From positions 105,335 to 169,334 of the forward strand of contig DAOMOX010000002.1 of the NCBI GenBank assembly GCA_035444565.1: a stretch of DNA of 64,000 nt, written 5' to 3'. Origin of the DNA: Candidatus Dojkabacteria bacterium. GTDB taxonomy: Bacteria > Patescibacteriota > Dojkabacteria > B142 > OLB20. The notes below the pieces were generated by a model. That model was not told the origin of the DNA. It was given only the letters and a program-made list of their open reading frames with translations, and did no database searches. The position numbers and the translations under genes are program-made. Below, one piece after another: positions 42,322-61,609 of this stretch. Position 1 is the stretch's first letter. Each line of letters begins with the position of its first letter.

Positions 42322-42492
42322 CCCTGACTTGATCCCGCCTCCGTTACATGGCGGGACGGATCTCTAGGTTATGATTTACCTAAACAAATGTTTGAGAGAG
42401 ATCCCCTCCCGTCATGTTTTAAGACGGGATCGAGGGGAAATATATGAGAGAGATTCCCTCCCGTCATGTTTTTAGACGGGATCGAGGGGAAA
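42322..42492. repeat. Composite repeat element, copy 2 (unit A plus two hairpin B units), upstream of RND transporter
   Basis: ccctgacttgatcccgcctccgttacatggcgggacggatctctaggtt ... 2x gagagatcccctcccgtcatgttttaagacgggatcgaggggaaa. Confidence 0.8.
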
Positions 42493-42585: not shown

Positions 42586-45246
42586 ATGAATAACAACTTG
42601 GTTACGAGATTTAGCGAAATTTTCTTCAAACGAAGTAGACTTACAATTCTACTTATAATTTCAGTACTTTTGCTTGGATTCTATTCATATTCAACTCTTC
42701 TGAAGCGAGAAGGTTTTCCAGTAATCAACTTACCAATTATTGTTGTAAATACCCCTTATCTTTCAGGAGATCCAGCAAAGACCGAAGCTGATATAACTGG
42801 GAAGATTTCCTCGAAAATCACAGAAATTGAAGGAGTAAAGGAAATCCAAACCACTTCCACATCAAATCTATCTTCAATTTTTGTCTCGCTTGATGATGGT
42901 ATCACGACTGCAGATGATGCGAAGGACAAGATTGAAAATGAAATATCAAAACTTAATCTAGAATCAGAGCCTATAATAATAGTTCCGAATGCAGCTCTCG
43001 TGGATGGTCAAAATGATCTTGTTTTTTCAATTTATTCAAAAGACTTAACAATCGAACAACTTCAGCAAAAAGCATTGTTGATTGAAACAGAACTTGAGAA
43101 AAGCGATTTGATAAAAGAGGTTAATATTAAAAATCAAATCACTACAGAGTTCGACTTTGCTACCCAGCAAGAGGTCACAGCAACACGTTCATATGCGAGA
43201 TCACTTGTGAAAAATGATGGCGAACTTGAGGCTTATGACTCACTTGATATTGGTGTTGTAAAGAAAAATACAGATGTAGGAACTATTGAGCTATCCGATG
43301 AAGTGAAAGCAATTGTCGAGAGAAGTTTAGAGAAAGAAGAGTTAGATGGAATTAGCGCACTTTATAGCGCAGATCCAGCAACATATCTCAGAGCGCAGAT
43401 ATCTTCCCTAGAATCAAATGCATTAGCTGCGATGATTACAATTTTTGTCATCTTACTGTTGTTTATAAACCTTCGTTCAGCAATTTTATTAGCATTATTC
43501 ATCCCTCTCACACTCGCATCAGTGTTTTTCATCTTCTCAATCTTCGGCTATACATTAAATACAATTTCATTGTTTGCTTTGATTTTAGTACTTGGGCTTT
43601 TCGTAGATGATGGGACAATCATCGTAGAGGCAATCGACTACTACAAAAGGCAAGGCCAGAAAGGTTTCCAAGCTGTCAGAAGTGCAATTAACGATATTGG
43701 AATCGCCGATATCTCAGGAACACTTACAACAGTTTTAGTGTTTCTTCCACTTGTTTTTGTTACTGGAATTTTGGGAGATTTTATAAAAATTCTTCCAATG
43801 ACAGTGATAATCGCTCTATTAGTTTCTCTATTTATCGCCCTAACAATCCTTCCATTTCTCTCTTCGTTCTTAATCAAAGACTTAGACAACAAGAAGAAAA
43901 GCAAAGAGAACATCCTATCAATCATAGTCAACTTCGTTCCAAAACTTATGATTAATTTCTCTGAAAAAAGTGGAAGAACTGTAAAACAAACATTGGAATC
44001 AAGATATTACCGCTTAGGCTTATTCGCCGTCTCATTAATATTAATTGGTATTGGGGGATACTATGCTAGCCAATTAAAGTTTGCATTCTTCGCACCTGCA
44101 AAAGACTCTGATTTGATTACAATTTCAGTTACGAATAAAATTCCTACTGACATTACGACAGCGAAATCTGCCACAACAGAACTCGAAAAATTAGTTGTTG
44201 ATAATTTCTCGGAAGAAATTCAAGAAATTGCCTACCTCGATGCAAATCAAAGAGGTGCTGAGATTAGAGTTTCTTTGAGTCCAATCACTGAGAGAGACAT
44301 TACTGCTGGGGATATTGTTCGAGAAATTAATGAATTAACCAAAGACAATGAAAGCTTAGTAGTAAGCGCTTCTATCGTTTCTGCTGGACCTCCCGTCGCT
44401 CAGTTTCCATTTGCAATGCAACTTTTCTCCGAAAATCAAACTGTCTTAGAAACAAAGTCTGCAGAGATTGCCGAATTCATAAAATCAACAGAACTTGATA
44501 AAGATGTTCAAGTTGAAGATGTAAAGGTTGATTACACCAAAGAAATCCGAAGAAAAGACAATGAAAGATTTGCCGAAATTAGAGTAAAGTTCAATGATAA
44601 ATACGATAGTGCCACATTATTGGAATTACAAGAAATTATAGAAGGTGAATACAACGGTGAGGACAATTCCGAATTCTCTCTTGGATTTGATTTCGGACAA
44701 GAGAGTGAAAATGCAAACTCCTTTAATTCTGTAGTATTTGCAGGATTAATAGCACTAATTGTTATGTATATTTTATTAGTATTGCAGTTCAACTCATTCA
44801 CACAGCCACTACTGATTTTGGTAGCAATACCATTTAGTTTTCCAATTTTATTCCCTGGACTGTTCTACACAGATAATCCAATGAGTTTCTTCGTTGTGAT
44901 TGGTCTTACCGGTCTGATTGGAATCGTAGTTAATAACACTATCATATTGATAGAATATGCCAACGCACAAAGGAAGTCTGGAAAATCCATAATTGACTCA
45001 ATAGCAGAATCAGTGAGATTGAGGACAAGACCGATTTTCACTACATCACTCACAACCATAGCTGGATTACTTCCTTTGGCACTCACTGAACCATTCTGGG
45101 AGCCATTGGCTTTCACTATCATCTTTGGATTAATCTCCAGTGTGATGATGATTGTCATCGCCTTCCCGGTTTACTACTTCTTTGTGGAATCCGCACGAGA
45201 TTTGTTCTACAAGAATGTTAAGAAGTTTAAGATGAGGGGGTTGTAA
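42586..45246 (+). CDS. RND-superfamily transporter (MMPL/AcrB-like; two TM bundles with large extracytoplasmic loops)
   Basis: 886 aa with hydrophobic clusters at about 270-430 and 720-880 and a duplicated domain layout. Confidence 0.5.
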   Translation: MNNNLVTRFSEIFFKRSRLTILLIISVLLLGFYSYSTLLKREGFPVINLPIIVVNTPYLSGDPAKTEADITGKISSKITEIEGVKEIQTTSTSNLSSIFVSLDDGITTADDAKDKIENEISKLNLESEPIIIVPNAALVDGQNDLVFSIYSKDLTIEQLQQKALLIETELEKSDLIKEVNIKNQITTEFDFATQQEVTATRSYARSLVKNDGELEAYDSLDIGVVKKNTDVGTIELSDEVKAIVERSLEKEELDGISALYSADPATYLRAQISSLESNALAAMITIFVILLLFINLRSAILLALFIPLTLASVFFIFSIFGYTLNTISLFALILVLGLFVDDGTIIVEAIDYYKRQGQKGFQAVRSAINDIGIADISGTLTTVLVFLPLVFVTGILGDFIKILPMTVIIALLVSLFIALTILPFLSSFLIKDLDNKKKSKENILSIIVNFVPKLMINFSEKSGRTVKQTLESRYYRLGLFAVSLILIGIGGYYASQLKFAFFAPAKDSDLITISVTNKIPTDITTAKSATTELEKLVVDNFSEEIQEIAYLDANQRGAEIRVSLSPITERDITAGDIVREINELTKDNESLVVSASIVSAGPPVAQFPFAMQLFSENQTVLETKSAEIAEFIKSTELDKDVQVEDVKVDYTKEIRRKDNERFAEIRVKFNDKYDSATLLELQEIIEGEYNGEDNSEFSLGFDFGQESENANSFNSVVFAGLIALIVMYILLVLQFNSFTQPLLILVAIPFSFPILFPGLFYTDNPMSFFVVIGLTGLIGIVVNNTIILIEYANAQRKSGKSIIDSIAESVRLRTRPIFTTSLTTIAGLLPLALTEPFWEPLAFTIIFGLISSVMMIVIAFPVYYFFVESARDLFYKNVKKFKMRGL

Positions 45247-46065: not shown

Positions 46066-46088
46066 ACTGTCACTCCTGCGAAAGCAGG
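46066..46088. terminator. Stem-loop actcctgc-gaaa-gcaggagt, probable bidirectional terminator
   Basis: Perfect 8-bp stem with GAAA loop 15 nt after the hicA stop. Confidence 0.4.
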
Positions 46089-46091
46089 AGT

Positions 46092-46316: not shown

Positions 46317-46685
46317 CTATTCCTTTTTCTCATACTCGTGAATTAATTTTAATAGTTCAGGAAATTCGCTAAATTCTTTTCCAATTTTTTCTAATGCAAC
46401 TTTCTCTTTCTGGACTTTTAACTCTTTTGAAGCCTTGTCTGCGTAGAAAAATGTGTCCCCTGCATAAATCTCAACCAAATCATGAACTAATGCATACTTT
46501 ATTATTTTATCGATGTCGTATTTCAGTTTCTCTGTGGAAATTATGTACCAGGAGACCATGGCGAGTTGAAAGCTATGTTCAGAATCATTTTCTAATCGAT
46601 TTTCTCCTGTTGCGTAAATTCTCCGCTCAAGCTGATTAAATTTAATTATAAATTCTGAGAAGTTAAGGATTCTTTTGATGTTCAT
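46317..46685 (-). CDS. HD-domain phosphohydrolase (YfbR-like short form)
   Basis: SEHSFQLAM ... ALVHDLVEIYAGD (H...HD...D metal ligands). Confidence 0.55.
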   Translation of the reverse strand: MNIKRILNFSEFIIKFNQLERRIYATGENRLENDSEHSFQLAMVSWYIISTEKLKYDIDKIIKYALVHDLVEIYAGDTFFYADKASKELKVQKEKVALEKIGKEFSEFPELLKLIHEYEKKE

Positions 46686-46753: not shown

Positions 46754-47080
46754 TTATTGGTTGAGTTTATCACTAATTTCTTTATCCAAACTATCCATCG
46801 TCTCCATAAATACCTTCTCTAAATCAATATCATACTTTTTCGCAATTATGAGAATAGACCAAAGACAGTCCGAGAGCTCATGTGCTAACTTTTCTTGAGA
46901 ATTTTCTATCTCACGTTTACCATTTTGAGCCTGTATGAGTTTTACTAAATCTCCAATGTCACCAACTAATCCCATGGTCAAATCCTCAATTGACCAAGGT
47001 TTACCATACTTATTTGTCTCGAATTGTTCGTATTTTTCTCTGATTTCTAAAGCTCTTTTTTGGATTTCTGTGAGATTCAT
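46754..47080 (-). CDS. MazG-like nucleotide pyrophosphohydrolase (small all-alpha NTP-PPase)
   Basis: LTMGLVGDIGDLVKLI and AHELSDCLWSILIIAKKYDIDLE match MazG EExxE/D motifs. Confidence 0.55.
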   Translation of the reverse strand: MNLTEIQKRALEIREKYEQFETNKYGKPWSIEDLTMGLVGDIGDLVKLIQAQNGKREIENSQEKLAHELSDCLWSILIIAKKYDIDLEKVFMETMDSLDKEISDKLNQ

Positions 47081-47105
47081 TATGATTGATGTTAAATATG
47101 TATAA

Positions 47106-47149
47106 ATCGGGCTGGTGAGACTTCCCTGCTTTCGCAGGGATAAACTACA
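47106..47149 (-). repeat. tRNA 3'-end pseudo-fragment type A (T-stem/acceptor ...TCTCACCAGCCCGA) with conserved TTTATCCC-hairpin-GGGAAG insertion, copy 1
   Basis: Minus-sense GTAGTTTATCCCTGCGAAAGCAGGGAAGTCTCACCAGCCCGAT; identical copy at 47318-47361. Confidence 0.6.
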
Positions 47150-47233
47150 TTTCCTATAGCATCGTAGCCATGCCTACGCTAAAGCTACGGCAGACTCACG
47201 ATTGAGTAATTTCTCACTTCGTTCTAAAACTCA

Positions 47234-47285
47234 ATCGGAGCGACTAGACTTCCCTGCTTCCGCAGGGATAAACTCCCTAGCGACT
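47234..47285 (-). repeat. Pseudo-fragment of tRNA-Pro(GGG) 3' end (T-arm and acceptor) with the T-loop replaced by the conserved hairpin insertion
   Basis: Minus-sense GTCGCTAG[GGAGTTTATCCCTGCGGAAGCAGGGA]AGTCTAGTCGCTCCGAT versus intact gene GTCGCTAG[TTCG]AGTCTAGTCGCTCCGAT. Confidence 0.65.
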
Positions 47286-47317
47286 TAATAACTAATGTAG
47301 TTACACCATTCTTTGCA

Positions 47318-47361
47318 AATCGGGCTGGTGAGACTTCCCTGCCTTCGCAGGGATAAACTAC
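47318..47361 (-). repeat. tRNA 3'-end pseudo-fragment type A, copy 2
   Basis: Same as 47106-47149 with one loop substitution (ttt to ctt). Confidence 0.6.
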
Positions 47362-47374
47362 ATTTTATTTAAAA

Positions 47375-47448
47375 TCGGAGCGACTAGACTCGAACTAGCG
47401 ACCTCACGCACCCCATGCGTGCGTTCTAGCCAACTGAACTACGCTCCG
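47375..47448 (-). tRNA. tRNA-Pro (anticodon GGG)
   Basis: Minus-sense CGGAGCG TA GTTC AGTTGGCTA GAAC G CACGC ATGGGGT GCGTG AGGTC GCTAG TTCGAGT CTAGT CGCTCCG A, followed by TTTT. Confidence 0.8.
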
Positions 47449-47555
47449 CTAAATAAATTATACATCCTGAACTTAATTTTTACTAAATGCTTATCAATAA
47501 CATCATTAATCTGGTAAAATCTGTTACGATCTTTGAATGACCGGAGTTAACCTGT

Positions 47556-47879
47556 GGTGACATGGCCAAGCTTGTCCCGCCAAGGCGGGATGAAGTAAGG
47601 CATGGGTCAATCTTTCTAAGATGACCATATTGAAAAAGGAGATAAAAAACATAGCTATTTTAAAAAAGAATTAAAAGAGAGGAGAATAAACTCACCGGAG
47701 GATTCCTCGGATTAAGTGGTGACATGGCCAAGCTTGTCCCGCCAAGGCGGGATGAAGTAAGGCATGGGTCAATCTTTCTAAGATGACCATATTGAAAAAG
47801 GAGATAAAAAACATAGCTATTTTAAAAAAGAATTAAAAGAGAGGAGAATAAACTCACCGGAGGATTCCTCGGATTAAGT
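47556..47879 (+). repeat. Tandem direct repeat, 2 x 162 bp, each unit beginning with a 5' fragment of tRNA-Cys (nt 1-31) carrying a 25-nt D-loop hairpin insertion
   Basis: Units 47556-47717 and 47718-47879 identical: GGTGACATGGCCAAG[cttgtcccgccaaggcgggatgaag]TAAGGCATGGGTC|aatctttctaag... A third unit would start exactly at the intact tRNA-Cys (47880). Confidence 0.8.
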
Positions 47880-47950
47880 GGTGACATGGCCAAGTGGTAA
47901 GGCATGGGTCTGCAAAACCCTTATCCCGGGTTCGATTCCCGGTGTCACCT
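47880..47950 (+). tRNA. tRNA-Cys (anticodon GCA)
   Basis: GGTGACA TG GCC..GGC A TGGGT CTGCAAA ACCCT TATC CCGGG TTCGATT CCCGG TGTCACC T; U33, A37, no encoded CCA. Confidence 0.8.
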
Positions 47951-47952
47951 TT

Positions 47953-48037
47953 GCCGTGGTGGCGGAATTGGTATACGCGCTGGACTTAAAATCCAGTGGC
48001 CTTAACAGCCTTAAGGGTTCGAGTCCCTTCCGCGGCA
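47953..48037 (+). tRNA. tRNA-Leu (anticodon TAA), class II with long variable arm
   Basis: GCCGTGG ... CTGGA CTTAAAA TCCAG T GGC CTTAACA GCC TT AAGGG TTCGAGT CCCTT CCGCGGC A. Confidence 0.75.
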
Positions 48038-48066
48038 GTTGTTTTAATAATAAATGGTGCTTTTTG

Positions 48067-48133
48067 AAGGGACGAGAAGTTTATCCCGTGAAATTTATGA
48101 AAGAAATTTATACGGGAAGTCCCTTACGCGGCA
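48067..48133 (+). repeat. Pseudo-fragment of tRNA-Leu 3' end with T-loop replaced by a 49-nt insertion of the same family; downstream flank ttgttttaataat also duplicated
   Basis: AAGGG[ACGAGAAGTTTATCCCGTGAAATTTATGAAAGAAATTTATACGGGAAGT]CCCTTACGCGGCA versus AAGGG[TTCGAGT]CCCTTCCGCGGCA in the intact gene 30 nt upstream. Confidence 0.65.
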
Positions 48134-48185
48134 TTTGTTTTAATAATCCAGCAAATCCCGAATACTGAATTTTGAATTATTTAAC

Positions 48186-48289
48186 ACGGGATATAATTCA
48201 ATTTCCACCAGAGGCGGACCAGCCTTTGGCTGGGGCTAGAATGTACGCTTCGGGTGCGTAATGTTCCCGGTTCAAGTCCGGGTATCCCG
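48186..48289 (+). tRNA. tRNA-Pro (anticodon CGG) with about 28-nt insertion (putative non-canonical intron) in the D-loop; CCA follows at 48290-48292
   Basis: CGGGATA TA ATTC [A-ATTTCCACCAGAGGCGGACCAGCCTTTG-GCTGGGGCTA] GAAT G TACGC TTCGGGT GCGTA ATGTT CCCGG TTCAAGT CCGGG TATCCCG A. All stems Watson-Crick, G37 as expected for Pro. Confidence 0.6.
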
Positions 48290-48569
48290 ACCAATCAAGA
48301 CGTGATTTTTTGAAATATCACGTAAAGCCTCATACAGAGGGCTTATTTCCATGTTCGTAAGTTCGTAATTTTTATATGTGGGTACGTTCGTAAACATACT
48401 TCCCAAAATATCCCTTCTTTGATTAAAGGTTGCAATTTCCCAGTATCGGTCTATTTTTGCACCAAATTGGGCTAACATTGTTGAAGATTGGCAAATTCAT
48501 CTAGTAGGTTAATTCTCTTGTTACCTTTAAGGGTTGAAGGTTAAACCCTCAAAATTTGAGCAGTTGAAA

Positions 48570-48616: not shown

Positions 48617-48892
48617 TTGGCATTTCACTTACAAAAGTTGTATGATACAGTAATATCATATTACCAGTATTTGAACACTATGTTTACAAACATTGGAGAG
48701 AAAATTAAGAAAGTAAGAAACGATAAAGGGTTGACACAGGAGGAGTTAGCCCAAAAGGCTAATATCTCCTATATAACCCTTGTGAAAATTGAGCAAGGAA
48801 AGGTTGAGAATCCTACAATGAAGACTTTGCAAAAAATTGCAAAGGCATTGGAAATTTCTCTTGATGAAATAGTTAAAAATGTAAAACAATGA
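48617..48892 (+). CDS. XRE-family helix-turn-helix transcriptional regulator (controller of R-M operon), probable true start 48680
   Basis: IGEKIKKVRNDKGLTQEELAQKANISYITLVKIEQGK (HTH_XRE); stop overlaps hsdR start. Confidence 0.65.
   Translation: MAFHLQKLYDTVISYYQYLNTMFTNIGEKIKKVRNDKGLTQEELAQKANISYITLVKIEQGKVENPTMKTLQKIAKALEISLDEIVKNVKQ
48650..48664. promoter_or_regulatory. Operator-like palindrome GTAATAT-C-ATATTAC just upstream of probable XRE start (ATG 48680)
   Basis: Perfect 7-bp inverted repeat. Confidence 0.35.
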
Positions 48893-51279
48893 ATAAAAAT
48901 CAATTATCAGAAACAGACATTAGAACAAAGTTTATTACACCCGCAATTCAAGATGCAGGTTGGAATATTCAAAAGCAAGTGCGAGAGGAAGTCCACTTTA
49001 CTGATGGAAGGATAATTGTTAAAGGAGAAACAGTAAAAAGAGCTAAAGGTAAGAAAGCTGATTATATCCTGTACTACAAATCAAACCTTCCCATTGCAAT
49101 TGTCGAAGCTAAAGACAACAAACACTCGATTGGAGATGGTATGCAACAAGGACTTGATTATGCTGAAATCCTTGATATACCTTTTGTATTCTCAAGCAAT
49201 GGAGATGGTTTCCTAGAACATGATAGAACTATTTCAGAGGGAAAAGTAGAAAGAGAAATATCATTACAGCAATTTCCTTCACCAGAAGAACTTTATCAAC
49301 GTTATAAAATTTGGAAGGGGTTATCTAGCGAGCAAGAACAAATTTTAAAACAAGACTACTACTACTCACCAACAAGTAAGACACCAAGATACTATCAAGA
49401 AATAGCTATCAACAGGACTGTTGAATCTATAGCAAAGGGAAAAGATAGACTTCTTCTTGTAATGGCAACAGGTACAGGGAAAACCTTTACTGCCTTTCAG
49501 ATAATGTGGCGGTTATGGCAAGCAAAGAAAAAGAAAAGAATTCTTTTTGTCGCTGACAGAAATATTCTAGTTGATGATCCGATGAGAAGAGATTTTTCTC
49601 CATTTGGTGAGAAAATGACAAAGATTAATAGACTTAACTTTAATATTCAGAAATACTCTGCATACGAAATTTTTATTGGATTGTATCAAAGCATAACTGG
49701 TTTGGATGAATCCCAAAAAATTTATAAACAGTTTCCAAGAGATTTTTTTGATTTGATAGTCATTGACGAAGCACACAGAGGAAGTGCTTCTGATGATTCT
49801 GCTTGGAGAGAAATATTAGAGTATTTTAACAGTTCGACTCAAGTCGGTATGACTGCTACTCCAAAGCAAGAGCATGGAGCAGATAATATTGAATACTTTG
49901 GTGAACCAGTTTACACATATTCACTAAAACAAGGGATTGAAGATGGTTTTCTTGCCCCTTACAGGGTAATTAGAGTGACTCTTGATACGGATTCAGAAGG
50001 CTTTAGACCTTACACAGGTCAAGTTGATAAGTATGGAAACGAAATTCCAGATGAAGAATATAACGTGAAAGATTTTGATAGAAGAATTGTTATTGATGAA
50101 AGAACAGAAATCATTGCAAGAAAGATTACTGAATTTCTAAAAAATACAGACCGATTCTCAAAAACAATCGTTTTTTGTGTAGATATTGCTCATGCAGAAC
50201 GTATGAGACAAGCTTTAATGAATGAGAATGTTGATCTAGTAAACGAAAATCGAAAATATGTGATGCGAATTACTGGTGATAACGAGGAAGGTAAAAACGA
50301 ATTGGATAACTTTATTGACCCAGAACAAAAATATCCAGTTGTTGTAACTACTTCGAAGCTACTTACAACAGGAGTTGACGCTAAAACTTGTAAATTGATT
50401 GTGCTAGATACAAATATCAACTCAATGACTGAATTTAAACAGATTATTGGCAGAGGTACGAGACTTGACCCTGATTTTGACAAGTATTTCTTTACAATAA
50501 TGGACTTTAGACAGGCTACTAAGTTATTTGCTGACCCTGCATTTGACGGTCCTGCAATAAGCACATCTGAAAAAACAGAAGATGATGAGATTACTCTACC
50601 ATCTGAAGATGAATATGTAGTCACCCCAGAGGAAGCAGAAGCATTAAAAGATTCAGCTGATATTGAATATATAAGTTCAAAAAATGATGTTTCGATAGAT
50701 GGTGCACCTGAAAAGCCTAAGAAGTATTATGTAAATGGTGTTGATGTTGAAGTTATAAATGAAACAGTTCAGTACTATGATGAGAACGGAAAACTTACAA
50801 CAGAATCATTAAGAAGCTATACGAAGAAAAGTCTTATTAAAAGATATAAAACACTTAATGAATTTCTGAATGATTGGAATGATGCTGAAATGAAATCTGC
50901 AATACTAGAGGAGCTTGAGGAACAGGGAATCTTTTTTGAAGAATTGAAAAAAGAAGTTGGAAAAGAATTAGATCCTTTCGATATGATTCTACACATTGCT
51001 TTTGATAAACCACCTCTTACACGTAGAGAAAGAGCTAATAATGTCATTAAGAGAAACTATTTTGAAAAGTATGGAGAGGAAGCTCGAAAAGTTTTACAGG
51101 CACTTCTTGATAAATACTCCGATGAAGGAATTATGGCACTTGAAGATATGGAAGTACTGAAAGTTCAGCCAATAAATCAGTTTGGTTCTCCTGTAGAAAT
51201 CGTGAGTTATTTCGGAGGTAGAGAGCAATATGTTGAAGCAGTCCAACAAATGGAACAATTAATTTATATGCAAGCTTAA
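48889..51279 (+). CDS. hsdR: Type I restriction enzyme R subunit (short form)
   Basis: HsdR N-terminal nuclease region (KADYILYY...IVEAKD), MATGTGKT Walker A, IVIDEAHRG DEAH box. Confidence 0.8.
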   Translation: MNKNQLSETDIRTKFITPAIQDAGWNIQKQVREEVHFTDGRIIVKGETVKRAKGKKADYILYYKSNLPIAIVEAKDNKHSIGDGMQQGLDYAEILDIPFVFSSNGDGFLEHDRTISEGKVEREISLQQFPSPEELYQRYKIWKGLSSEQEQILKQDYYYSPTSKTPRYYQEIAINRTVESIAKGKDRLLLVMATGTGKTFTAFQIMWRLWQAKKKKRILFVADRNILVDDPMRRDFSPFGEKMTKINRLNFNIQKYSAYEIFIGLYQSITGLDESQKIYKQFPRDFFDLIVIDEAHRGSASDDSAWREILEYFNSSTQVGMTATPKQEHGADNIEYFGEPVYTYSLKQGIEDGFLAPYRVIRVTLDTDSEGFRPYTGQVDKYGNEIPDEEYNVKDFDRRIVIDERTEIIARKITEFLKNTDRFSKTIVFCVDIAHAERMRQALMNENVDLVNENRKYVMRITGDNEEGKNELDNFIDPEQKYPVVVTTSKLLTTGVDAKTCKLIVLDTNINSMTEFKQIIGRGTRLDPDFDKYFFTIMDFRQATKLFADPAFDGPAISTSEKTEDDEITLPSEDEYVVTPEEAEALKDSADIEYISSKNDVSIDGAPEKPKKYYVNGVDVEVINETVQYYDENGKLTTESLRSYTKKSLIKRYKTLNEFLNDWNDAEMKSAILEELEEQGIFFEELKKEVGKELDPFDMILHIAFDKPPLTRRERANNVIKRNYFEKYGEEARKVLQALLDKYSDEGIMALEDMEVLKVQPINQFGSPVEIVSYFGGREQYVEAVQQMEQLIYMQA

Positions 51280-51285
51280 ATCACT

Positions 51286-52716
51286 ATGGCACTATCAAAC
51301 CTCATAAAAACAATTCAGAATATAATGAGAAAAGATACAGGAGTTGATGGAGATGCTCAGCGAATCTCTCAGCTTACTTGGATGCTTTTCCTCAAGATAT
51401 TTGATGATAAAGAAAGTGAATATGAATTATTGGATTCAAATTATAAGTCCCCAATTCCAGAAGAACTTCGTTGGAGAAATTGGGCAGTAGAAGATACTGG
51501 AATTACAGGTGATGAATTGATAGATTTTATCAACGAAAAGCTTTTCCCTGGTCTAAAAAATATGAGTTGGCAGAAAGGAGATGATCCTAAGGGGTTTATT
51601 GTCAAAGAAATCTTTCAAGATAGCTACAATTATATGAAGTCAGGAACATTGATGAGGCAAGTTATCAATGTGATAGATAACGAAATTGACTTCAATAATA
51701 GTAAGCAAACTCATATTTTTAATGATATTTATGAGAAAATTTTAAAAGACCTCCAAAGTGCAGGAAACGCTGGCGAGTACTATACCCCACGAGCTGTAAC
51801 CAAGTTTGTTGTTGAGATGGTAGATCCACAACTCGGAGATAAGATTCTAGACCCTGCATGTGGTACAGGCGGATTTTTAATCGATTCACTTGAGCATATC
51901 AGAAACAATCAGGTTAAAACACCAGAAGAAGAAAAGCTATTGCAGAATTCAATTTATGGAACTGAAAAGAAGCCTCTTCCTCATATGCTTGTTATGACCA
52001 ACTTGATTCTACATGGCATTGAAGCTCCCCTAAATGTAAGGCGAGGAAATTCGTTAGCAAATTCTATTAGAGATATTACTCAAAAAGATCGTGTTGACGT
52101 TGTTATTACAAATCCTCCATTTGGTGGAATAGAACAAGATATGATCAAAAAAGGTTTTCCTACTCAATTCCAAACTAGTGAGACTGCAGACCTATTCTTA
52201 ATTATGATTATTGAGCTTCTGAAATCTGGTGGAAAAGCAGGAATAGTCTTACCAGATGGCTCACTTACTGGGGATGGGGTGAAAGCAAGAATTAGGGAAA
52301 AACTAATAACTGATTGCAACCTACATACGATTGTTAGGTTACCCAATTCGGTATTCGCACCATATGCGACTGTTGCTACAAATCTACTTTTTTTCACAAA
52401 AGGTGAATCAACAAAAGAAGTTTGGTATTACGAGCATACATTACCAGAAGGACAAAAATCATATTCAAAGACAAAAACTATTAATTTTGAAGAGTTTAAG
52501 CCAATACAAGAATGGTGGATTGATAGGAAAGAAAGTGAGGTGTCTTGGAAAGTAACTATCGATGATCTTCAAGAGACTGGCTTCAACTTAGATATTAAGA
52601 ATCCAAACAAGAAGGAGGATACTATTGAATTTACATCTGCTGAATTAATTAAGAAATTAGAAGATTCATTTGCAGATAGTAGAAAGCTACTTGAGGAAAT
52701 TAAAAAGGAATTATGA
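51286..52716 (+). CDS. hsdM: Type I R-M N6-adenine methyltransferase subunit
   Basis: DPACGTGGFLI motif I, ITNPPFGG motif IV. Confidence 0.85.
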   Translation: MALSNLIKTIQNIMRKDTGVDGDAQRISQLTWMLFLKIFDDKESEYELLDSNYKSPIPEELRWRNWAVEDTGITGDELIDFINEKLFPGLKNMSWQKGDDPKGFIVKEIFQDSYNYMKSGTLMRQVINVIDNEIDFNNSKQTHIFNDIYEKILKDLQSAGNAGEYYTPRAVTKFVVEMVDPQLGDKILDPACGTGGFLIDSLEHIRNNQVKTPEEEKLLQNSIYGTEKKPLPHMLVMTNLILHGIEAPLNVRRGNSLANSIRDITQKDRVDVVITNPPFGGIEQDMIKKGFPTQFQTSETADLFLIMIIELLKSGGKAGIVLPDGSLTGDGVKARIREKLITDCNLHTIVRLPNSVFAPYATVATNLLFFTKGESTKEVWYYEHTLPEGQKSYSKTKTINFEEFKPIQEWWIDRKESEVSWKVTIDDLQETGFNLDIKNPNKKEDTIEFTSAELIKKLEDSFADSRKLLEEIKKEL

Positions 52717-55403
52717 AACAGGAGTCATTATATGAAAATATTATTGAATGGTTAAAAGATAAGCCTTTATTTGTGCAAGACTCTGCTCGCAGGCTACTGC
52801 ACAATTCGGTTTTATCTGACAAGGACAAGGATGATATATTTATTTTACTTAAAAAAGAATGTGGTTTTGAGGGAATAGAACTAGTAAGCCAAGCAGTGAC
52901 ATCCTCTGACATCCCCTCAACAATTGCAAGCAATCAAGGATATCCGAAGTTATTATCAATCAAAAACCCTGTAAATATTAATGCCTTAAATACAAATGCT
53001 GTACTAAACTTTGATCCCAATGGTATTACTGTTGTATATGGGAAAAATGGATCTGGGAAATCAAGTTATTCAAGAATTTTAAAGCGCTTTTGTTGGAGTA
53101 GACATAAGGATACTAACATACTGCCAAATATTTATAGTTCCAATAATAATCCTCAATCTGTTGTTGTTGAGACAGATACCAATGAGCATAATTTAAAAAT
53201 AGCCGATCAAATATCAGTATCTGAATTAAATTCTATCTATGTATTCGATTCAAATTGTTCGTCTGTATATGTGAATAATGAAACTGAGACTCAATATAAA
53301 CCTGCAGAAATTGATCTTATACAAGATCTTGTAAACCTATTAAAGGATTTAAATCAACAGGTGAATAATGAAGAAGATAAATTAGTTACTACCAAACCAG
53401 AGCTGTCTTTTGAGGATTACCGTAACACTAATATTTATAGTTGGTATTCAAATATTGAAAAAGAATCATCTGAGAATATTTCATCTAAACTAACGATTAG
53501 TAAAGAGAATCGGAAGAGACACGGCGATTTAGAGGAGTTGCTCGCTAAAAGTGATCCAAGCAAGGAAAATCAAGATCTAATACAAAAGAAAACACGATAT
53601 GAGACCTTAAGAAATGAATTACTTAGAATTGAGAAAGCGTTTTCTAAGCTGAACTTTCAAAATATTAGGAAACTGAAAAACGATTTTAATATAAAGAAAG
53701 GTGCATACGAACTGTCGAAATCAATGATTGAAAAATATAATAAGTTAGCGGGCATAGGCTCTGAGTCTTGGAAACTATTATGGCAAGCTGCTAAGAAGTA
53801 TGCTACAACTGAAGTACATCCTCACGTGTCTGAGTATCCCTCTGGCACAAGTGCCAATGTATGTATGCTCTGTCAGCAGGATTTAGATAATGAAGCAAAG
53901 AAAAAGCAAATAGACTTTGACTCTTTTATCCAGAGTAATGCCAGTGCAGAATTTGATCAAGCGAAAAAAACTGTTTTAGATAAATACAACCAAATTGTCA
54001 ATGTAAAAATCACTGCCTCACAAGATACAATAGTAGAGATAAAACAAGACGTAGATGGATTTGAGGCTAAATATAATACATTTGAAACAGAATTTAAGAA
54101 AGTACAAGCTAGCTGGCTCAAATATTTAGATGAAAATGAAGCTACAAATGAGATCCTAATATCTGCTTATCAGGAAAAAGAAGAAGTATCAGAAAGTAAA
54201 GTAACACTCGAAGAAGTGAAAAGTGATCAAGTTCAAGTAATTGATAGTGTTATATATAAAGAGGAATTGAAGTGCATTTCCGATTTAATCGCTAAAGAGG
54301 TAGAAAATATAGAAGAAAAGATTCTCGCAAATAAGAAATTATTAGAAGATAGACCAACTTTGGAAAAGGAAAAAAAAGAGTTAGATGCATTGCTCTACCT
54401 TGAATCAAAGAAAACCGAACTTCTGGGATATTTAACAGAGTCTTCTCTTAAAGAAAGATATAAGTCTTGCAAAGCTAAGCTTAATACATCTCAATACTCA
54501 AAAAAAATAGGGGACTTATTAGAAACTAATGGTATTAATTTGTTGAAAACTGAATTTACATCTGTACTTAATTTCTTCAATACTGATCTTGCTTCAAAAG
54601 TTTGCTTAGAAAAAACCAGAACAGATAGCGGTACTACTTTCCACCAATTGGGATTCTCAACAATTAACGGAAGTATGAATTCTGTTTTGAGTGAAGGTGA
54701 ACAGAAAATAATTTCACTCTCTGGGTTCTTAGCCGAATGTACCATTGGTGGTGCGAAGAACACGATCGTATTCGATGATCCTGTAAATTCTCTTGATCAA
54801 GATTATCGAGAGGCTATAGCTGATAAATTAATAGAGCTTTGTAAGGACAGACAAATAATAGTATTTACTCACGACCTTTATTTTCTTAGCTTACTTATGT
54901 ATGGTTCAAAGGAAACTAATGGAGAAGAGTGTAAATCTTTGTCTTTAGAATTTGCGGAGAGTAGTGGAATCGTCACTGATGAAGTACCATTCTTAGCTAA
55001 GAATGTTCAACAAAGAATTGATAATATCAAAAGTGAACTTAATAAATTATCTTCGTTAACAAGTGGAAAAGATACCGCATTAGATTCAATTCGGAAGAAA
55101 ATGCGTTTTCTTGTCGAGAAATCAATAGAAGAGATACTTTCAAATAAAGCAATCCAAAGATTTAGCAAGAACATTACGGTCAAGAAAGACCTACTGGCCA
55201 GTTATGTGGTCACAGACAAAAATGATATTAACTACTTGATTGATTTATATGGAAAGTATTCTATTACAGAACATGATGGGGGCTTCGAGATTGTCCCAAA
55301 ACTTCCAGATGAAACTGCTATTAGAAACGATCTAACTGAGTTTTCAACTTGGAAGGATAAATTTAAAACTAAACTCGATACGTATAAAAATAATGGAATA
55401 TAA
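52713..55403 (+). CDS. RloC/PrrC-like ABC ATPase with long coiled coil and CxxC zinc hook, located between hsdM and hsdS (candidate anticodon nuclease or other R-M-linked effector)
   Basis: Walker A VVYGKNGSGKSS, central CMLCQQD in predicted coiled coil, ABC signature LSEGEQ, Walker B IVFDDPVNSLD, H-loop IVFTHD, about 160-aa C-terminal domain of unknown function. Confidence 0.45.
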   Translation: MKQESLYENIIEWLKDKPLFVQDSARRLLHNSVLSDKDKDDIFILLKKECGFEGIELVSQAVTSSDIPSTIASNQGYPKLLSIKNPVNINALNTNAVLNFDPNGITVVYGKNGSGKSSYSRILKRFCWSRHKDTNILPNIYSSNNNPQSVVVETDTNEHNLKIADQISVSELNSIYVFDSNCSSVYVNNETETQYKPAEIDLIQDLVNLLKDLNQQVNNEEDKLVTTKPELSFEDYRNTNIYSWYSNIEKESSENISSKLTISKENRKRHGDLEELLAKSDPSKENQDLIQKKTRYETLRNELLRIEKAFSKLNFQNIRKLKNDFNIKKGAYELSKSMIEKYNKLAGIGSESWKLLWQAAKKYATTEVHPHVSEYPSGTSANVCMLCQQDLDNEAKKKQIDFDSFIQSNASAEFDQAKKTVLDKYNQIVNVKITASQDTIVEIKQDVDGFEAKYNTFETEFKKVQASWLKYLDENEATNEILISAYQEKEEVSESKVTLEEVKSDQVQVIDSVIYKEELKCISDLIAKEVENIEEKILANKKLLEDRPTLEKEKKELDALLYLESKKTELLGYLTESSLKERYKSCKAKLNTSQYSKKIGDLLETNGINLLKTEFTSVLNFFNTDLASKVCLEKTRTDSGTTFHQLGFSTINGSMNSVLSEGEQKIISLSGFLAECTIGGAKNTIVFDDPVNSLDQDYREAIADKLIELCKDRQIIVFTHDLYFLSLLMYGSKETNGEECKSLSLEFAESSGIVTDEVPFLAKNVQQRIDNIKSELNKLSSLTSGKDTALDSIRKKMRFLVEKSIEEILSNKAIQRFSKNITVKKDLLASYVVTDKNDINYLIDLYGKYSITEHDGGFEIVPKLPDETAIRNDLTEFSTWKDKFKTKLDTYKNNGI

Positions 55404-56568
55404 AATCCAGAAAGTAAAACTCAAGGATGTTTGTAAAATAGAAAAAGGCAAGATAGGTATTACGAAAGCAGTAAAAGGAGAATATCCTTTGGTTGTAACT
55501 GCTGAAGAAAGATTAAGCCACAACGAATGGCATTTCAATGAACCTGCGACAATTGTACCCCTTGTCTCTTCTACTGGTCACGGGCATGCAAGTATAAAAA
55601 GGCTACATTACGCAGATGGTAAATATGCTGTTGGAAATATACTTGCTACTCTTATTCCAATAGATCATGACTATCTTAATGCTAAATATCTTTATGTGTA
55701 TCTAACAATAAATAAAGAGGAATTATTGGTATCGCAAATGACTGGGGCAGCTAACGTCACTCTAACACTTACTAGATTAGCAGATGTAGAAATTGAAATT
55801 CCCGATTATGCCACTCAACTAAAAGTTATAAACCGTTATGAAGATTCTGAAAATTTCAAGAATCAGATGGGTTCACAAATAGAAGTTAGATCCCAGTTAA
55901 TTGAAAATCTCCGCCAACAAATTCTCAATGATGCGATAACAGGTAAATTATCAGAAAAATGGAGGAGAGACAATCTGGGAGACGTAATTACTGACATAGG
56001 TACAGGTTGGAAAATATGTAGGTTATTTGAAGTGGCAGACTTTTTTAATGGCAAGGCTCATGAACCTATTGTCTCTGAGAATGGTAAATTTATATTAATT
56101 AACTCTAAATTTGTTTCGAACTCAGGTGATACAAAGATAAAAATGGTAACGGAAAGGCTAACACCACTTCAAAGTGGAGATATTGCATTTGTTATGAGTG
56201 ATGTACCAGGTGGAAGAGCACTTGCAAGAACATATTTAGTTGAACGAGATGATAAATATTCCCTTAATCAAAGGATTTGTGGTTTTAAAGCAAAAAGTTG
56301 TATTTTACCCGCTTTCTTGAATGTAATTCTGAATAGAAATGATTATTTTTTATCTTTTGATGATGGAAAAAAGCAAACAAATTTAAGAAAAGACCAAATC
56401 ATACAGTTTGAATTTTCTCTTCCTTCAATTTCAGAACAACACTATATTGTGGAGGGAATAAAATCTCTATTTATAAAGATCGATCGAATAAATCAAATAA
56501 ACAATGAGAATCTGACCATGGTTGATCTTCTGAACAAAGTATCACTTAAAGAATTGTTCGGCAATTAA
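55393..56568 (+). CDS. hsdS: Type I R-M specificity subunit
   Basis: Two TRD halves with conserved spacer helices (…LRQQILNDAITGKL…, …VEGIKSLFIKIDRINQI…). Confidence 0.75.
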   Translation: MEYKIQKVKLKDVCKIEKGKIGITKAVKGEYPLVVTAEERLSHNEWHFNEPATIVPLVSSTGHGHASIKRLHYADGKYAVGNILATLIPIDHDYLNAKYLYVYLTINKEELLVSQMTGAANVTLTLTRLADVEIEIPDYATQLKVINRYEDSENFKNQMGSQIEVRSQLIENLRQQILNDAITGKLSEKWRRDNLGDVITDIGTGWKICRLFEVADFFNGKAHEPIVSENGKFILINSKFVSNSGDTKIKMVTERLTPLQSGDIAFVMSDVPGGRALARTYLVERDDKYSLNQRICGFKAKSCILPAFLNVILNRNDYFLSFDDGKKQTNLRKDQIIQFEFSLPSISEQHYIVEGIKSLFIKIDRINQINNENLTMVDLLNKVSLKELFGN

Positions 56569-56585
56569 GTTATAATAATATACTT

Positions 56586-57791
56586 ATGGCAACAACTATA
56601 AAATGCGAACAATGCGGAAATGTAATTGAAATTACGGATGCAATCCGCAAAGAACTTGAGGCTAAAGTACTTCAAGAGACTCAAGCAAAACATGATGCTG
56701 AAATAAAAGCTTTAAAAGAAAAACAAGAGCAACTTGAAGAGCAAAAGCAAAAGGAAATTGAACAAGTTAAACAAGAAATATCAGAATCAGCAAAAAAAGA
56801 TGCAATAGAAAAAGTCCGCAAAGAATATGATACGAAGATCAATTCAACTAAAGAAGAGTCGGAAGAAAGAGAAAAACAAAACCAAGAATTACAAAAACAA
56901 GTTTCGGATCTCATTAAACAACTTAGAGAATCAAAGGATACAGAGGGAAAATTAAAGATACAATTTGAGAAACAGTTGCTAGAGGAACAAGACAATATTA
57001 AGCAAGGAGCTAAAAAAGAAGCACAAGAAGAACTAAGCCTACAAATAGCACAAAAGGATAAGATGCTCGAAGATCTTAAAAAACAACTTCAAGAAGCACA
57101 AAGGAAAGCTCAACAAGGTTCTCAGCAACTTCAAGGTGAAGTACAGGAACTTGCTCTTGAAGACCAACTAAAACAAGCATTTATATACGATGAAGTTTCA
57201 GAAGTACCTAAAGGTATAAATGGAGCAGATGTGATACAGACCGTAAGAACCAATTTCGGTACTTCTTGCGGAACTATTGTTTGGGAATCTAAAAATACCA
57301 AAGCATGGTCTCAACAATGGGTTGCAAAGCTAAAAGAAGATACAAGAACATTAAAAGCGGATATATCAGTTTTAGTATCATCTGTACTACCAGAAGGAAT
57401 TCAATCATTTGCTCAAATAGACGGAGTATGGGTGTGCGATATGAAGAGTGCAATACCATTAGCATTTGCTCTCAGAGAGAGGATTATCGCCGTTAGAAAT
57501 ATTCAAGAGGCAAATAAAGGAAAAGCAACTAAAGCGGAGGTTGTATACAATTACTTAATAAGTAATGATTTTAAACAGCGAATTGAAGTTTGGATTGAGT
57601 ATTTCAAATCAAGGAAGGAAGAGTTAGATATAGAGAAGCGGTATTTCATGAAGAAGTGGGATAAAGAAGATAAGAATATTATGAAAGTCCTCCATAACAC
57701 AGCAGGAATGTATGGCGATTTACAGGGACTTATTGGTACTGCTTTACCGAAGGTTCAGTATCTGGAACTACCAGAAGAGATACATAATTAA
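56586..57791 (+). CDS. Hypothetical coiled-coil protein with N-terminal CxxC and C-terminal globular domain (DUF2130-like), R-M associated
   Basis: MATTIKCEQCGNV..., long KE-rich coiled coil, C-terminal GADVIQTVRTNFGTSCGTIVWESKNTKAW... Confidence 0.35.
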   Translation: MATTIKCEQCGNVIEITDAIRKELEAKVLQETQAKHDAEIKALKEKQEQLEEQKQKEIEQVKQEISESAKKDAIEKVRKEYDTKINSTKEESEEREKQNQELQKQVSDLIKQLRESKDTEGKLKIQFEKQLLEEQDNIKQGAKKEAQEELSLQIAQKDKMLEDLKKQLQEAQRKAQQGSQQLQGEVQELALEDQLKQAFIYDEVSEVPKGINGADVIQTVRTNFGTSCGTIVWESKNTKAWSQQWVAKLKEDTRTLKADISVLVSSVLPEGIQSFAQIDGVWVCDMKSAIPLAFALRERIIAVRNIQEANKGKATKAEVVYNYLISNDFKQRIEVWIEYFKSRKEELDIEKRYFMKKWDKEDKNIMKVLHNTAGMYGDLQGLIGTALPKVQYLELPEEIHN

Positions 57792-57813
57792 AATACTTAT
57801 ATTAAAATATCTT

Positions 57814-60090: not shown

Positions 60091-60093
60091 CAC

Positions 60094-60744
60094 TTAGTTA
60101 GGTACATTTAGTGCTAGTACAACCTTTCCGTTTATCAGAAGATCTTCATTCTCAAAAATAAATATCGGTTGGTGCTTTTGATTTGAAGAATTCGGTTTTA
60201 GTACGATAGAATTTTCCGTCTTATTATAAACTTTAATAGTTGCACCCCCATTAATAATGGCAAGTACTATATCACCCTCATTTATTTGCGCTTCTTTGTC
60301 AATAACTGCAAAACTGTTATCACTTAGAAGTGTTGCATAGGGGGACTTTTTACTCGGAGCATATTGCTGATTCATAGAGTCCCCATCTACCTTTACGGCA
60401 AATAAATTGCCATTATTTTTTACCACAGTTGAGTCAACCTCAATAATCCCCATTCTTTCTTCTTCCGCATTCGCAAGTGGCTGTCCTGCATTAGCAACTC
60501 CTAATAGAGGAATTCTAGTAAATTTTAAGCTTTCTACTAATTGCAGAGTTCTCTTACCAATAGAGTTATCTTTGGTTATAAAACCTTCGTTCTCGAGTAC
60601 TTTTACATGGTAATGTACGCCTGCCCTTGATTCTATATCAACGTTATCAGCGATCTCCTCTAATGTTGGCGACACTGAATTTTCGGCAAAATACTCACGA
60701 ATAAAAGCAAGAATCTGTTTTTGTTTTTGAGTTAGTTGAGCCAT
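60094..60744 (-). CDS. LexA-like repressor (wHTH plus S24 self-cleaving peptidase domain)
   Basis: N-terminal LexA-type wHTH (QKQILAFIREYFAENSVSPTLEEIA), AVKVDGDSMNQ Ser motif and downstream INGKVV Lys region. Confidence 0.65.
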   Translation of the reverse strand: MAQLTQKQKQILAFIREYFAENSVSPTLEEIADNVDIESRAGVHYHVKVLENEGFITKDNSIGKRTLQLVESLKFTRIPLLGVANAGQPLANAEEERMGIIEVDSTVVKNNGNLFAVKVDGDSMNQQYAPSKKSPYATLLSDNSFAVIDKEAQINEGDIVLAIINGGATIKVYNKTENSIVLKPNSSNQKHQPIFIFENEDLLINGKVVLALNVPN

Positions 60745-60852
60745 ACTTTGACATTTGTTAAATATTCTGTTAAGCTACATTCTAACATCTTCTAACTTTT
60801 GTTTCAAGTGTTAATAACTGCCCAAACTACTTTAATTAATATATTTATTCAA

Positions 60853-61098
60853 ATGGGTAAGTCGAATATTCATGTTACGAAAAGACAGGACGGTAAGTGG
60901 CAGGACAAAAAGGCAGGTGGAGATAAAGCCTCTGGTGTATTTAATACTCAGAAAGAAGCTGAAAAGCATGCAAAGCAAATATTAAGGAATCAGGGCGGAG
61001 GTGAAGTTAGGATTCACGGACTTGATGGGAAGATAAGGGATTCTGACACAGTAAAACCTGCAAATGATCCTAACCCACCAAAAGATAAAGTACATTAA
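60853..61098 (+). CDS. DUF2188-family small protein (ATG 60853 rather than upstream start of the 99-aa ORF)
   Basis: MGKSNIHVTKRQDGKWQDKKAGGDKASGVFNTQKEAEKHAKQILRNQGGGEVRIHGLDGKIRDSDT matches DUF2188 pattern. Confidence 0.5.
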   Translation: MGKSNIHVTKRQDGKWQDKKAGGDKASGVFNTQKEAEKHAKQILRNQGGGEVRIHGLDGKIRDSDTVKPANDPNPPKDKVH

Positions 61099-61109
61099 TA
61101 AGCATTAAC

Positions 61110-61607: not shown

Positions 61608-61609
61608 AA

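Follow-up and report, generated by a model that had tools for sequence, protein, structure and literature searches.

The DNA examined here, referred to below as the window, is a 64,000-nt stretch of contig DAOMOX010000002.1 from Candidatus Dojkabacteria, a bacterium of the Candidate Phyla Radiation (CPR). In a cluster of tRNA genes within the window, an intact tRNA-Cys(GCA) gene (47880..47950, plus strand; ARAGORN and Rfam, 66.7 bits) is immediately preceded by two tandem repeat units of 162 bp, which occupy positions 47556..47717 and 47718..47879 of the same strand, are 100% identical, and run in register into the tRNA gene that starts at 47880. Tandem Repeats Finder delimits the array to 47554-47894 (period 162, 2.1 copies, 100% matches, score 682), and a repeat search returned the same two 162-nt copies at 100% identity and, within tRNA-Cys, stretches of 17 nt and 14 nt that repeat parts of the unit a third time. 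In the register of the tRNA, each unit starts with GGTGACATGGCCAAG (nt 1-15); the TGG of the D loop is then replaced by an insert of 25 nt, CTTGTCCCGCCAAGGCGGGATGAAG, after which come TAAGGCATGGGTC (nt 19-31) and a 109-nt body. The insert, located at 47571..47595 in unit 1 and at 47733-47757 in unit 2 (plus strand), contains the hairpin TCCCGC-CAAG-GCGGGA, and its only copies in the window are these two, compared to 0 expected by chance. The unit resembles tRNA-Cys as far as nt 31, and the similarity is lost where the anticodon loop begins. The pattern is far beyond chance, and its description in an earlier note on this DNA, including the end of the similarity at the anticodon loop and the recent duplication implied by identical units, was accurate. 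A search for the 109-nt body elsewhere, which that note proposed, detected no further copy in the 64-kb window, nor in any fetched locus except those of the same strain.

A promoter-like site, TTATCA-18-TAAAAT with a TG upstream of it, lies 5' of unit 1 (47491..47520, plus strand) and is the probable promoter of the array, tRNA-Cys, and tRNA-Leu(TAA), the latter an intact gene that follows 1-2 nt past tRNA-Cys (47952..48038, plus strand; ARAGORN and Rfam). Because it is the only such match on the plus strand within 47050-48300, tRNA-Cys is likely transcribed through both units, that is, behind a leader of 324 nt, and the same probably applies to tRNA-Leu. The motif is retained 5' of the pseudo-tRNA or of tRNA-Cys in the related loci L005, L095, L086, and L094 described below.

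The body of the repeat could be interpreted by comparison with a related locus that retains an intact gene, an aspect not visible to the author of the earlier note. One genome per species was scanned for the 5' end of tRNA-Cys carrying any D-loop insert of 8-38 nt, and the only locus returned was L005, labelled Candidatus Saccharibacteria, which contains the same tRNA-Pro/Cys/Leu cluster as the window. The D-loop hairpin in the pseudo-5' tRNA-Cys of L005 is close to that of the window, having an unchanged stem but a different loop; the pseudo-tRNA reaches nt 34 and is followed by a second hairpin and the sequence CAAAACC, then by an intact 87-aa open reading frame (ORF) and a tRNA-Cys identical to that of the window. 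The ORF matches the GIY-YIG nuclease family of Pfam (PF01541, E=1.3e-17). When the L005 protein was compared to the body of the window repeat using tblastn, the last 22 codons and the TAA stop of a GIY-YIG nuclease gene were recovered (KHSYFKKELKERRINSPEDSSD*; 47647..47715, with the second copy at 47809-47877, plus strand; 64% identity, E=0.002). The stop codon is located 2 nt before tRNA-Cys, the same spacing as in L005 and in another relative, L095. In a DNA alignment of the window unit with positions 950-1317 of L005, the same pseudo-5' tRNA-Cys, D-loop hairpin, and gene end flank an internal gap of ~200 bp, and the remnant is frameshifted and holds a stop codon. Because of the 22-codon match, the shared stop spacing, and the ~200-bp deletion, we identify the repeat unit as a pseudo-tRNA joined to a gutted GIY-YIG nuclease gene.

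Among relatives that share the promoter flank and tRNA-Cys (L086, L094, L095, L005, and the window), the site is polymorphic for the presence or absence of the element, and four states can be distinguished. In L086 and L094, which were reached through members of one 90% protein cluster, the site is empty: the upstream flank, including the TTATCA-18-TAAAAT motif, is ~99% identical to that of the window and leads straight into an intact tRNA-Cys, identical to that of the window, with 0 units. L095 is filled, with a pseudo-5' tRNA that has a normal D loop and extends to nt 34, a canonical 15+15-nt hairpin pair at nt 34|35, an intact nuclease gene, and tRNA-Cys; the D-loop insert is missing. L005 is filled in the same manner but has the added D-loop hairpin in the pseudo-tRNA. 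Finally, the window carries a relic, in which the D-loop hairpin is retained, the nuclease gene is mostly deleted, and the segment is duplicated. The four states suggest an order of events. The connection with a mobile element targeting a tRNA gene, drawn in the earlier note, is thus upheld: in L095 and L005, the pseudo-tRNA extends to nt 34 and the element starts there, at what appears to be the original junction.

The L005 protein belongs to a family of minimal nucleases. It has 47 homologues at E<=1e-5, most of them 74-91 aa long, one of which is named from Pacebacteria, and in an alignment of 30 homologues Y5, Y16, G18, R26, H30, and E62 are invariant. The proteins, mostly 74-109 aa, comprise the catalytic domain only. 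The nearest solved structures are those of the minimal UPF0213/Slx1-like proteins 1zg2 and 1ywl, that is, the closest solved relatives of these CPR proteins are minimal Slx1-like proteins (PMC1564403).

A metagenome scan built on a 6-sequence alignment identified 80 loci encoding homologues, and in 42 of these a tRNA on the same strand begins within 120 nt of the ORF match. About 28 of the adjoining tRNAs are tRNA-Cys, and the others include Leu (with three anticodons), Ile, Phe, Val, Ser, Ala, and Gln. A strict block search, for which we estimate the chance of a spurious piece at ~1e-3 per block, detected pseudo-pieces of the cognate tRNA upstream in 22 and downstream in 8 of the 42 loci; most of the remaining loci that we inspected by eye contain an upstream pseudo-5' tRNA as well. 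In L006 and L008, the pseudo-5' piece derives from a tRNA-Cys sequence other than that of the intact gene, and in L010 the pseudo-5' and pseudo-3' pieces agree with each other and not with the intact gene. Given these mismatches, the intact tRNA is best read as having arrived with the element. The nucleases group by tRNA type, and the junction positions differ between loci.

Other clades of this mini GIY-YIG family occupy different sites. Some members are located inside 16S rRNA genes near the 5' end (L041, L064, and L070), and others, among L047, L049, L053, L055, L062, and L032, lie between genes; in both groups, the ORF is tightly enclosed by inverted repeats of 12-20 nt. Separate tandem arrays of hairpin-bearing pseudo-tRNA units beside an intact tRNA were detected in L048 (~780-975, period 75 nt), L013 (~2340-2560, period 102 nt), and in a tRNA-Pro array of L005 (~597-770, period 86 nt), which points to recurrent array formation in this element family. 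When viral contigs were scanned for the hairpin junction of the anticodon loop, 0 matches were obtained. The class of elements looks widespread in the ultrasmall bacteria of the CPR.

The hairpin inserts form a coherent family of their own. In the pseudo-tRNAs, they interrupt the sequence cleanly at three positions, in the D loop (GTG|GA), in the anticodon at 34|35 (CTG|CA), and in the T loop (GTT|CG), and the usual insert consists of two 15-nt hairpins, TCnnGC-RRA-GCnnGA followed by TCnnGC-TYY-GCnnGA. Perfect TCnnGC-N3/4-GCnnGA units occur 103 times in the 220 kb of metagenomic loci, compared to 0.15 in shuffled sequences, and all but three of them (100/103) adjoin the ORF or a tRNA. Both variable positions form Watson-Crick pairs in 100 of 112 frames. 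Under the two-hairpin model, 99% of the cells are paired, and 63 cells with double changes were counted versus 17±4 in shuffles, with none of the 500 shuffles reaching the observed value. The variable positions support this model and give no support to folding of the 30-nt insert into a single long hairpin of 11 bp. The hairpin nearest the ORF most often ends 7-24 nt 5' of it, and the first downstream hairpin most often begins 9-33 nt past the tRNA; the hairpins therefore bracket the cassette. The 25-nt insert of the window array holds one hairpin unit of the TCnnGC..GCnnGA type. Within the window, hairpins of this type cluster at 47104-48233, with three others at 46074, 45394, and 4527; the first of these three (46074-46089, TCCTGC-GAAA-GCAGGA) lies between a convergent hicA-like gene and a small ORF, and could be a terminator or a copy of the family. 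The GC-GAA-GC sequence is the classic, very stable DNA mini-hairpin, which hints at a role for folded DNA.

Taken together, we interpret the array as the non-coding remains of a small mobile cassette whose targets are CPR tRNA genes, and assign a probability of roughly 80% to this interpretation. The sequence evidence amounts to homology, the existence of both filled and empty alleles, replacement tRNAs of foreign origin, covariation in the hairpins, and the recurrence of arrays. The cassette would comprise a gene for a GIY-YIG nuclease of ~87 aa, a complete replacement tRNA within a few nucleotides of it, and bracketing palindromic hairpin inserts. We deduce the order of the first three steps of the proposed scenario from the genome states compared, and the fourth step is also inferred. 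First, the cassette would have entered the anticodon loop of the resident tRNA-Cys, after nt 34, so that the old 5' half became a pseudo-tRNA behind the original promoter, as in L095. Second, the D loop of this inactivated 5' half would have gained another hairpin, the state seen in L005. Third, the lineage of the window would have lost by deletion ~200 bp, which took away the hairpin of the anticodon loop and all but the last ~22 codons of the nuclease gene. Fourth, the 162-bp segment between direct repeats of the first 17 nt of the tRNA would have been duplicated by unequal recombination or misaligned break repair; the same exchange could also excise the segment exactly, giving back the empty site of close relatives. 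The array itself probably has no function and is a scar, given that close relatives lack it and that its body is a broken gene.

As for the mobility of the cassette, the most likely route is a homing-like one, in which the predicted nuclease would introduce breaks in tRNA genes, and repair would copy the template that bears the element. The hairpins might serve as element ends or as breakers of the target site, and might also move on their own through gene conversion. Eukaryotic Slx1 is a structure-specific nuclease and the CPR proteins are Slx1-like, so recognition of the DNA structure of a hairpin or cloverleaf, rather than of a sequence, is a reasonable guess. Further, the relic may mark an undescribed class of CPR mobile elements, to which we give about even odds: a cassette of ~0.4 kb with a minimal Slx1-like GIY-YIG nuclease, a replacement tRNA, and covarying 15+15-nt double hairpins, which would split resident tRNAs (Cys, Leu, Ile, Pro, and others) and drive turnover of tRNA alleles, and whose 30-nt hairpin pair would also spread alone into tRNA loops through break-induced gene conversion, as in the tRNA-Pro(CGG) described below.

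Several observations weigh against the mobile cassette scenario. Mobility is deduced from the presence/absence pattern and the foreign replacement tRNAs, and the nuclease activity and cleavage are predicted. Minimal Slx1-like/UPF0213 domains without a DNA-binding domain are unlike the characterized homing endonucleases, and the GIY-YIG ORFs in CPR rRNA inserts have been judged to lie outside spread by homing (PMC11270868). The replacement tRNA has the anticodon-loop sequence of the presumed target, and the model gives no account of how it escapes cleavage. In L086 and L094, the empty alleles may represent the ancestral state or the outcome of a precise deletion between the 17-nt repeats. Because the units are identical, break-induced duplication and simple slippage are indistinguishable. 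Lastly, conservation of the D-loop hairpin stem between the window and L005 makes a leader function of the pseudo-tRNA possible.

In its stronger form, the latter point leads to an unlikely, although best surviving, alternative, namely, that the array is maintained as a functional leader of tRNA-Cys, either a structured 5' RNA that adjusts how the tRNA-Cys/Leu precursor is processed or how stable it is, or a decoy that absorbs a tRNA-directed nuclease. The array is indeed situated between the sole promoter-like site and the tRNA, but two close relatives have the same promoter and tRNA without any array. The hairpin in the D loop has the same stem in the window and in L005 with a different loop, and hairpin covariation is strong, whereas the pseudo-tRNA of L095 has no such hairpin and the body of the unit is a frameshifted gene remnant with a stop codon. 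Tandem pseudo-5' arrays recur directly before intact tRNAs at unrelated loci (L048 and the Pro array of L005), but the 100% identity of the two units in the window yields no signal of selection.

It is quite improbable that the array is an assembly artefact, with a single unit, or none, expanded by the assembler. Perfect repeats longer than typical reads or k-mers invite this suspicion, and so do two independent 2.5-kb contigs (L002 and L003) that break off exactly 55 nt past the start of copy 2 and have a terminal overlap of 55 nt, as is typical of an unresolved graph loop. These contigs and L001, a contig from a separate metagenome-assembled genome (MAG) in which the array is 100% identical to that of the window, were found through an exact-protein look-up with the neighbouring mazG-like gene. 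The ends of L002 and L003 are the expected behaviour of a de Bruijn graph at a tandem loop. The junction between the units, made up of the end of the body, the 17 shared nt, and the hairpin insert, differs from the junctions with the flank and with the tRNA; the block common to the unit and the tRNA is only 17 nt, below any assembly k-mer. Because no more than these 17 nt are shared with the other two junctions, the unit-to-unit junction must occur in real reads, and it is present in the window, L001, and L002/L003, which come from different assemblies. One unit is supported in any case by the homology with L005. Thus, at least 2 units are real, a figure that, coming from short-read assemblies, is a lower bound and not the exact copy number.

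Slightly less probable still is that the repeats are attachment (att) site remnants of an integrase-type element recombining in the tRNA anticodon loop. The earlier note pointed to archaeal tRNA-targeting integrases, a setting that does not fit the CPR bacterial host or the Saccharibacteria label of L005. The tRNA cluster is a hotspot, with partial tRNA copies beside several tRNAs and a defence island (type I restriction-modification, GmrSD, SMODS, and others) directly after it that is missing in relatives, and the CPR element resembles the islands and phages mobilized by tyrosine recombinases in its use of a tRNA gene as the landing site, in the preservation of a functional tRNA through element-borne sequence, and in leaving a partial tRNA scar. 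However, no integrase or recombinase was detected when 18 ORFs located at 38-64 kb were scanned against Pfam. The att sites of integrases duplicate the 3' part of the tRNA as a direct repeat bounding the element, whereas the piece duplicated here is the 5' portion (nt 1-31), and the sequence between the repeats is the 109-nt nuclease gene remnant. In contrast to tyrosine-recombinase elements, the whole tRNA is replaced, both 5' and 3' pseudo-halves are left, and the cargo is ~0.4 kb, and the variation of junctions among loci fits homologous repair better than recombination at a fixed core site.

The remaining suggestion of the earlier note, that the 5' pieces reflect split-tRNA or intron-containing-tRNA biology with the hairpin as an intron, is the least credible of all. 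In its favour, inserts do sit in tRNA loops, and in one full-length gene, tRNA-Pro(CGG), a clean insert of 30 nt is the sole interruption. However, the host is bacterial, the pseudo-tRNA-Cys pieces are not followed by a 3' half, an intact tRNA-Cys adjoins them, and the minimum-free-energy fold of the insert is a plain hairpin that forms none of the bulge-helix-bulge geometry the note wished to see checked. Rfam searches, run at the gathering threshold on the full window and at E<=1 on 47000-48400, yielded tRNAs and, at these tRNAs, two weak tRNA-like (mascRNA) matches, but no ribozyme or intron family. In silico removal of hairpin pairs from 35 metagenomic loci exposed no hidden full-length tRNA, the hairpins sitting in truncated pseudo-copies. 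Group I introns with homing endonuclease genes in bacterial tRNAs resemble the CPR element in the insertion into the anticodon loop and the link with a nuclease gene; unlike these introns, it has no ribozyme in Rfam, and the function is provided by a second, intact tRNA gene and not by splicing of the interrupted one.

For the decayed nuclease cassette, the closest parallels are found among GIY-YIG genes. A tested precedent is the free-standing homing endonuclease SegB of T-even phages, which cleaves tRNA genes internally and whose breaks lead, in a recombination-dependent manner, to tandem amplification of neighbouring segments (PMC13096335). The CPR element is likewise a GIY-YIG nuclease gene among tRNA genes, and the amplification caused by SegB fits the tandem pseudo-tRNA arrays. 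As in homing systems, a GIY-YIG domain with conserved catalytic residues is encoded by the L005 ORF, of which the window keeps the last 22 codons only, and filled (L095, L005) and empty (L086, L094) alleles coexist. In contrast to SegB, the CPR proteins of ~85 aa are Slx1-like/UPF0213 and consist of the catalytic domain only, with no attached sequence-specific DNA-binding domain of the Seg/I-TevI kind; the host is a cellular CPR genome and not a phage; and the CPR element splits the resident tRNA, brings a whole replacement tRNA, and has covarying palindromic hairpin inserts, its nuclease activity being a prediction.

The rRNA genes of CPR bacteria carry GIY-YIG-encoding insertion sequences that are neither group I nor group II introns (Tsurumaki et al. 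2024, PMC11270868). The protein family and the host group are the same, and homologues of the L005 protein in L041, L064, and L070 are located in 16S rRNA genes with flanking inverted repeats. Here, the gene lies in or next to a tRNA gene, both in the window and in 42 of the 80 metagenomic loci, and not within an rRNA gene, and the tRNA-borne form adds the replacement tRNA, the pseudo-halves of the target, and the 15+15-nt hairpin inserts. The main text of the rRNA study deals with rRNA only, and the term 'tRNA' is absent from it (PMC11270868). Repetitive extragenic palindromic (REP) sequences and their doublets (REPINs) are similar to the hairpins described here as short, strongly structured, insertion-like palindromes that occur as doublets. 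They differ in their genome-wide intergenic dispersal, whereas the hairpins of the window, save three, are confined to the tRNA cluster and 100 of the 103 metagenomic units lie by the ORF or a tRNA; moreover, the CPR hairpins occupy defined positions in tRNA loops, and no RAYT transposase is implicated.

Three related phenomena are already known: GIY-YIG genes within insertions of CPR rRNA genes, homing endonucleases in the neighbourhood of phage tRNAs, and islands that target tRNAs. A literature search found no description of the tRNA-borne element, nor of its combination of a minimal nuclease, a whole replacement tRNA, target pseudo-halves, and covarying double-hairpin inserts; coverage of subscription journals was thin, which makes this weak evidence of novelty. 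The window array appears to be a decayed, duplicated member of this tRNA-borne GIY-YIG family, so that an odd perfect repeat is explained as a scar, and a probably essential tRNA-Cys is likely read through a 324-nt junk leader. The same architecture of a mini GIY-YIG nuclease, a replacement tRNA, and hairpin-riddled target pseudo-halves recurs in CPR (Patescibacteria). If the mobile cassette interpretation is correct, it would reveal a new way for a selfish gene to hold an essential RNA gene without a self-splicing intron, by destroying the resident copy and supplying its own. It would also provide a function and a natural substrate for the large, uncharacterized bacterial Slx1-like/UPF0213 family, and would account for tRNA allele replacement, and perhaps for the inversion and tandem arrays, around the tRNA clusters of reduced genomes. 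For annotation, it would imply that 30-nt inserts may disrupt tRNA genes in CPR MAGs or cause them to be overlooked, and that contig ends are often located at such genes.

The rest of the tRNA cluster in the window seems to reflect the same process as the array. A full-length tRNA-Pro(CGG) (48187..48290, plus strand) is cleanly interrupted between T17 and G18 of the D loop by a 30-nt (15+15) double hairpin (48204-48233); it was recognized by ARAGORN only once the 30 nt were removed in silico, and Rfam reports a partial match of 23.3 bits. This gene is intact in L086 and L094, and in the window it may be dead or processed by some novel route. The insert resembles the hairpin in the pseudo-5' tRNA-Pro(GGG) of L005, L094, and L095, and because the flanks of both Pro genes are similar, it is plausible that it was copied into tRNA-Pro(CGG) by gene conversion.

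The intact tRNA-Pro(GGG) of the window (47375..47448, minus strand; ARAGORN and Rfam) represents allele A, whereas L086 has allele X at this locus. Three scars of pseudo-3' tRNA-Pro follow on the minus strand. The first (47317..47359) has the 3' end of allele X, identical to that of the intact tRNA-Pro(GGG) of L086, with the T-loop hairpin TCCCTGC-GAAG-GCAGGGA; the second (47232..47290) derives from allele A and consists of the T stem, a hairpin, and the 3' end, with an orthologous scar in L086 and L094; the third (47104..47146), again of allele X with a T-loop hairpin, lies beside the mazG-like gene and is also found in L094. The two tRNA-Pro(GGG) alleles, which start with CGGAGCG and CGGGCTG, swap among close relatives, each leaving scars of the other. 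In L086, the block of four tRNAs (Pro-GGG, Cys, Leu, and Pro-CGG) is inverted relative to the mazG-like gene, compared to the window and L094; this inversion may have occurred via recombination between inverted tRNA-Pro sequences.

A pseudo-3' tRNA-Leu scar, consisting of AGTT, a hairpin (TCCCGT...ACGGGA), and AGTCCCTTACGCGGCA, which extends from the T loop to the 3' end, is located at 48078..48133 (plus strand), ~80 nt past the real tRNA-Leu, and is also present in L086. It has 1 mismatch, and the loop of its hairpin is long and AT-rich. The ~125-nt spacer that separates tRNA-Cys from tRNA-Leu in L086 and L094 is missing from the window, and in L005 the spacer contains a pseudo-3' tRNA-Cys. 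The spacers of L005, L086, and L094 were aligned in order to trace the ancestral flank past the pseudo-3' tRNA-Cys of L005, the alignment being informative over ~10 nt only.

The defence island directly past the tRNA cluster (48617-63383) encodes a helix-turn-helix regulator, a type I restriction-modification system (HsdR/M/S) with an AAA_21 (AbiEii-type) ATPase domain, a DUF2130 protein, GmrSD-Schlafen, a LexA-like repressor, and a SMODS protein; on this side of the cluster, L086 and L094 have NUDIX, HAD, and HD genes instead. On the other side, a 52-bp tandem repeat with a GC-rich hairpin (42386-42492; 2.1 copies, 92% matches) lies just 5' of, and overlaps, the start of an AcrB-like gene (42586-45246). 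An HD-domain gene at 46317-46685 (minus strand) encodes 122 aa, compared to 155-197 aa in its cluster relatives, and is possibly truncated.

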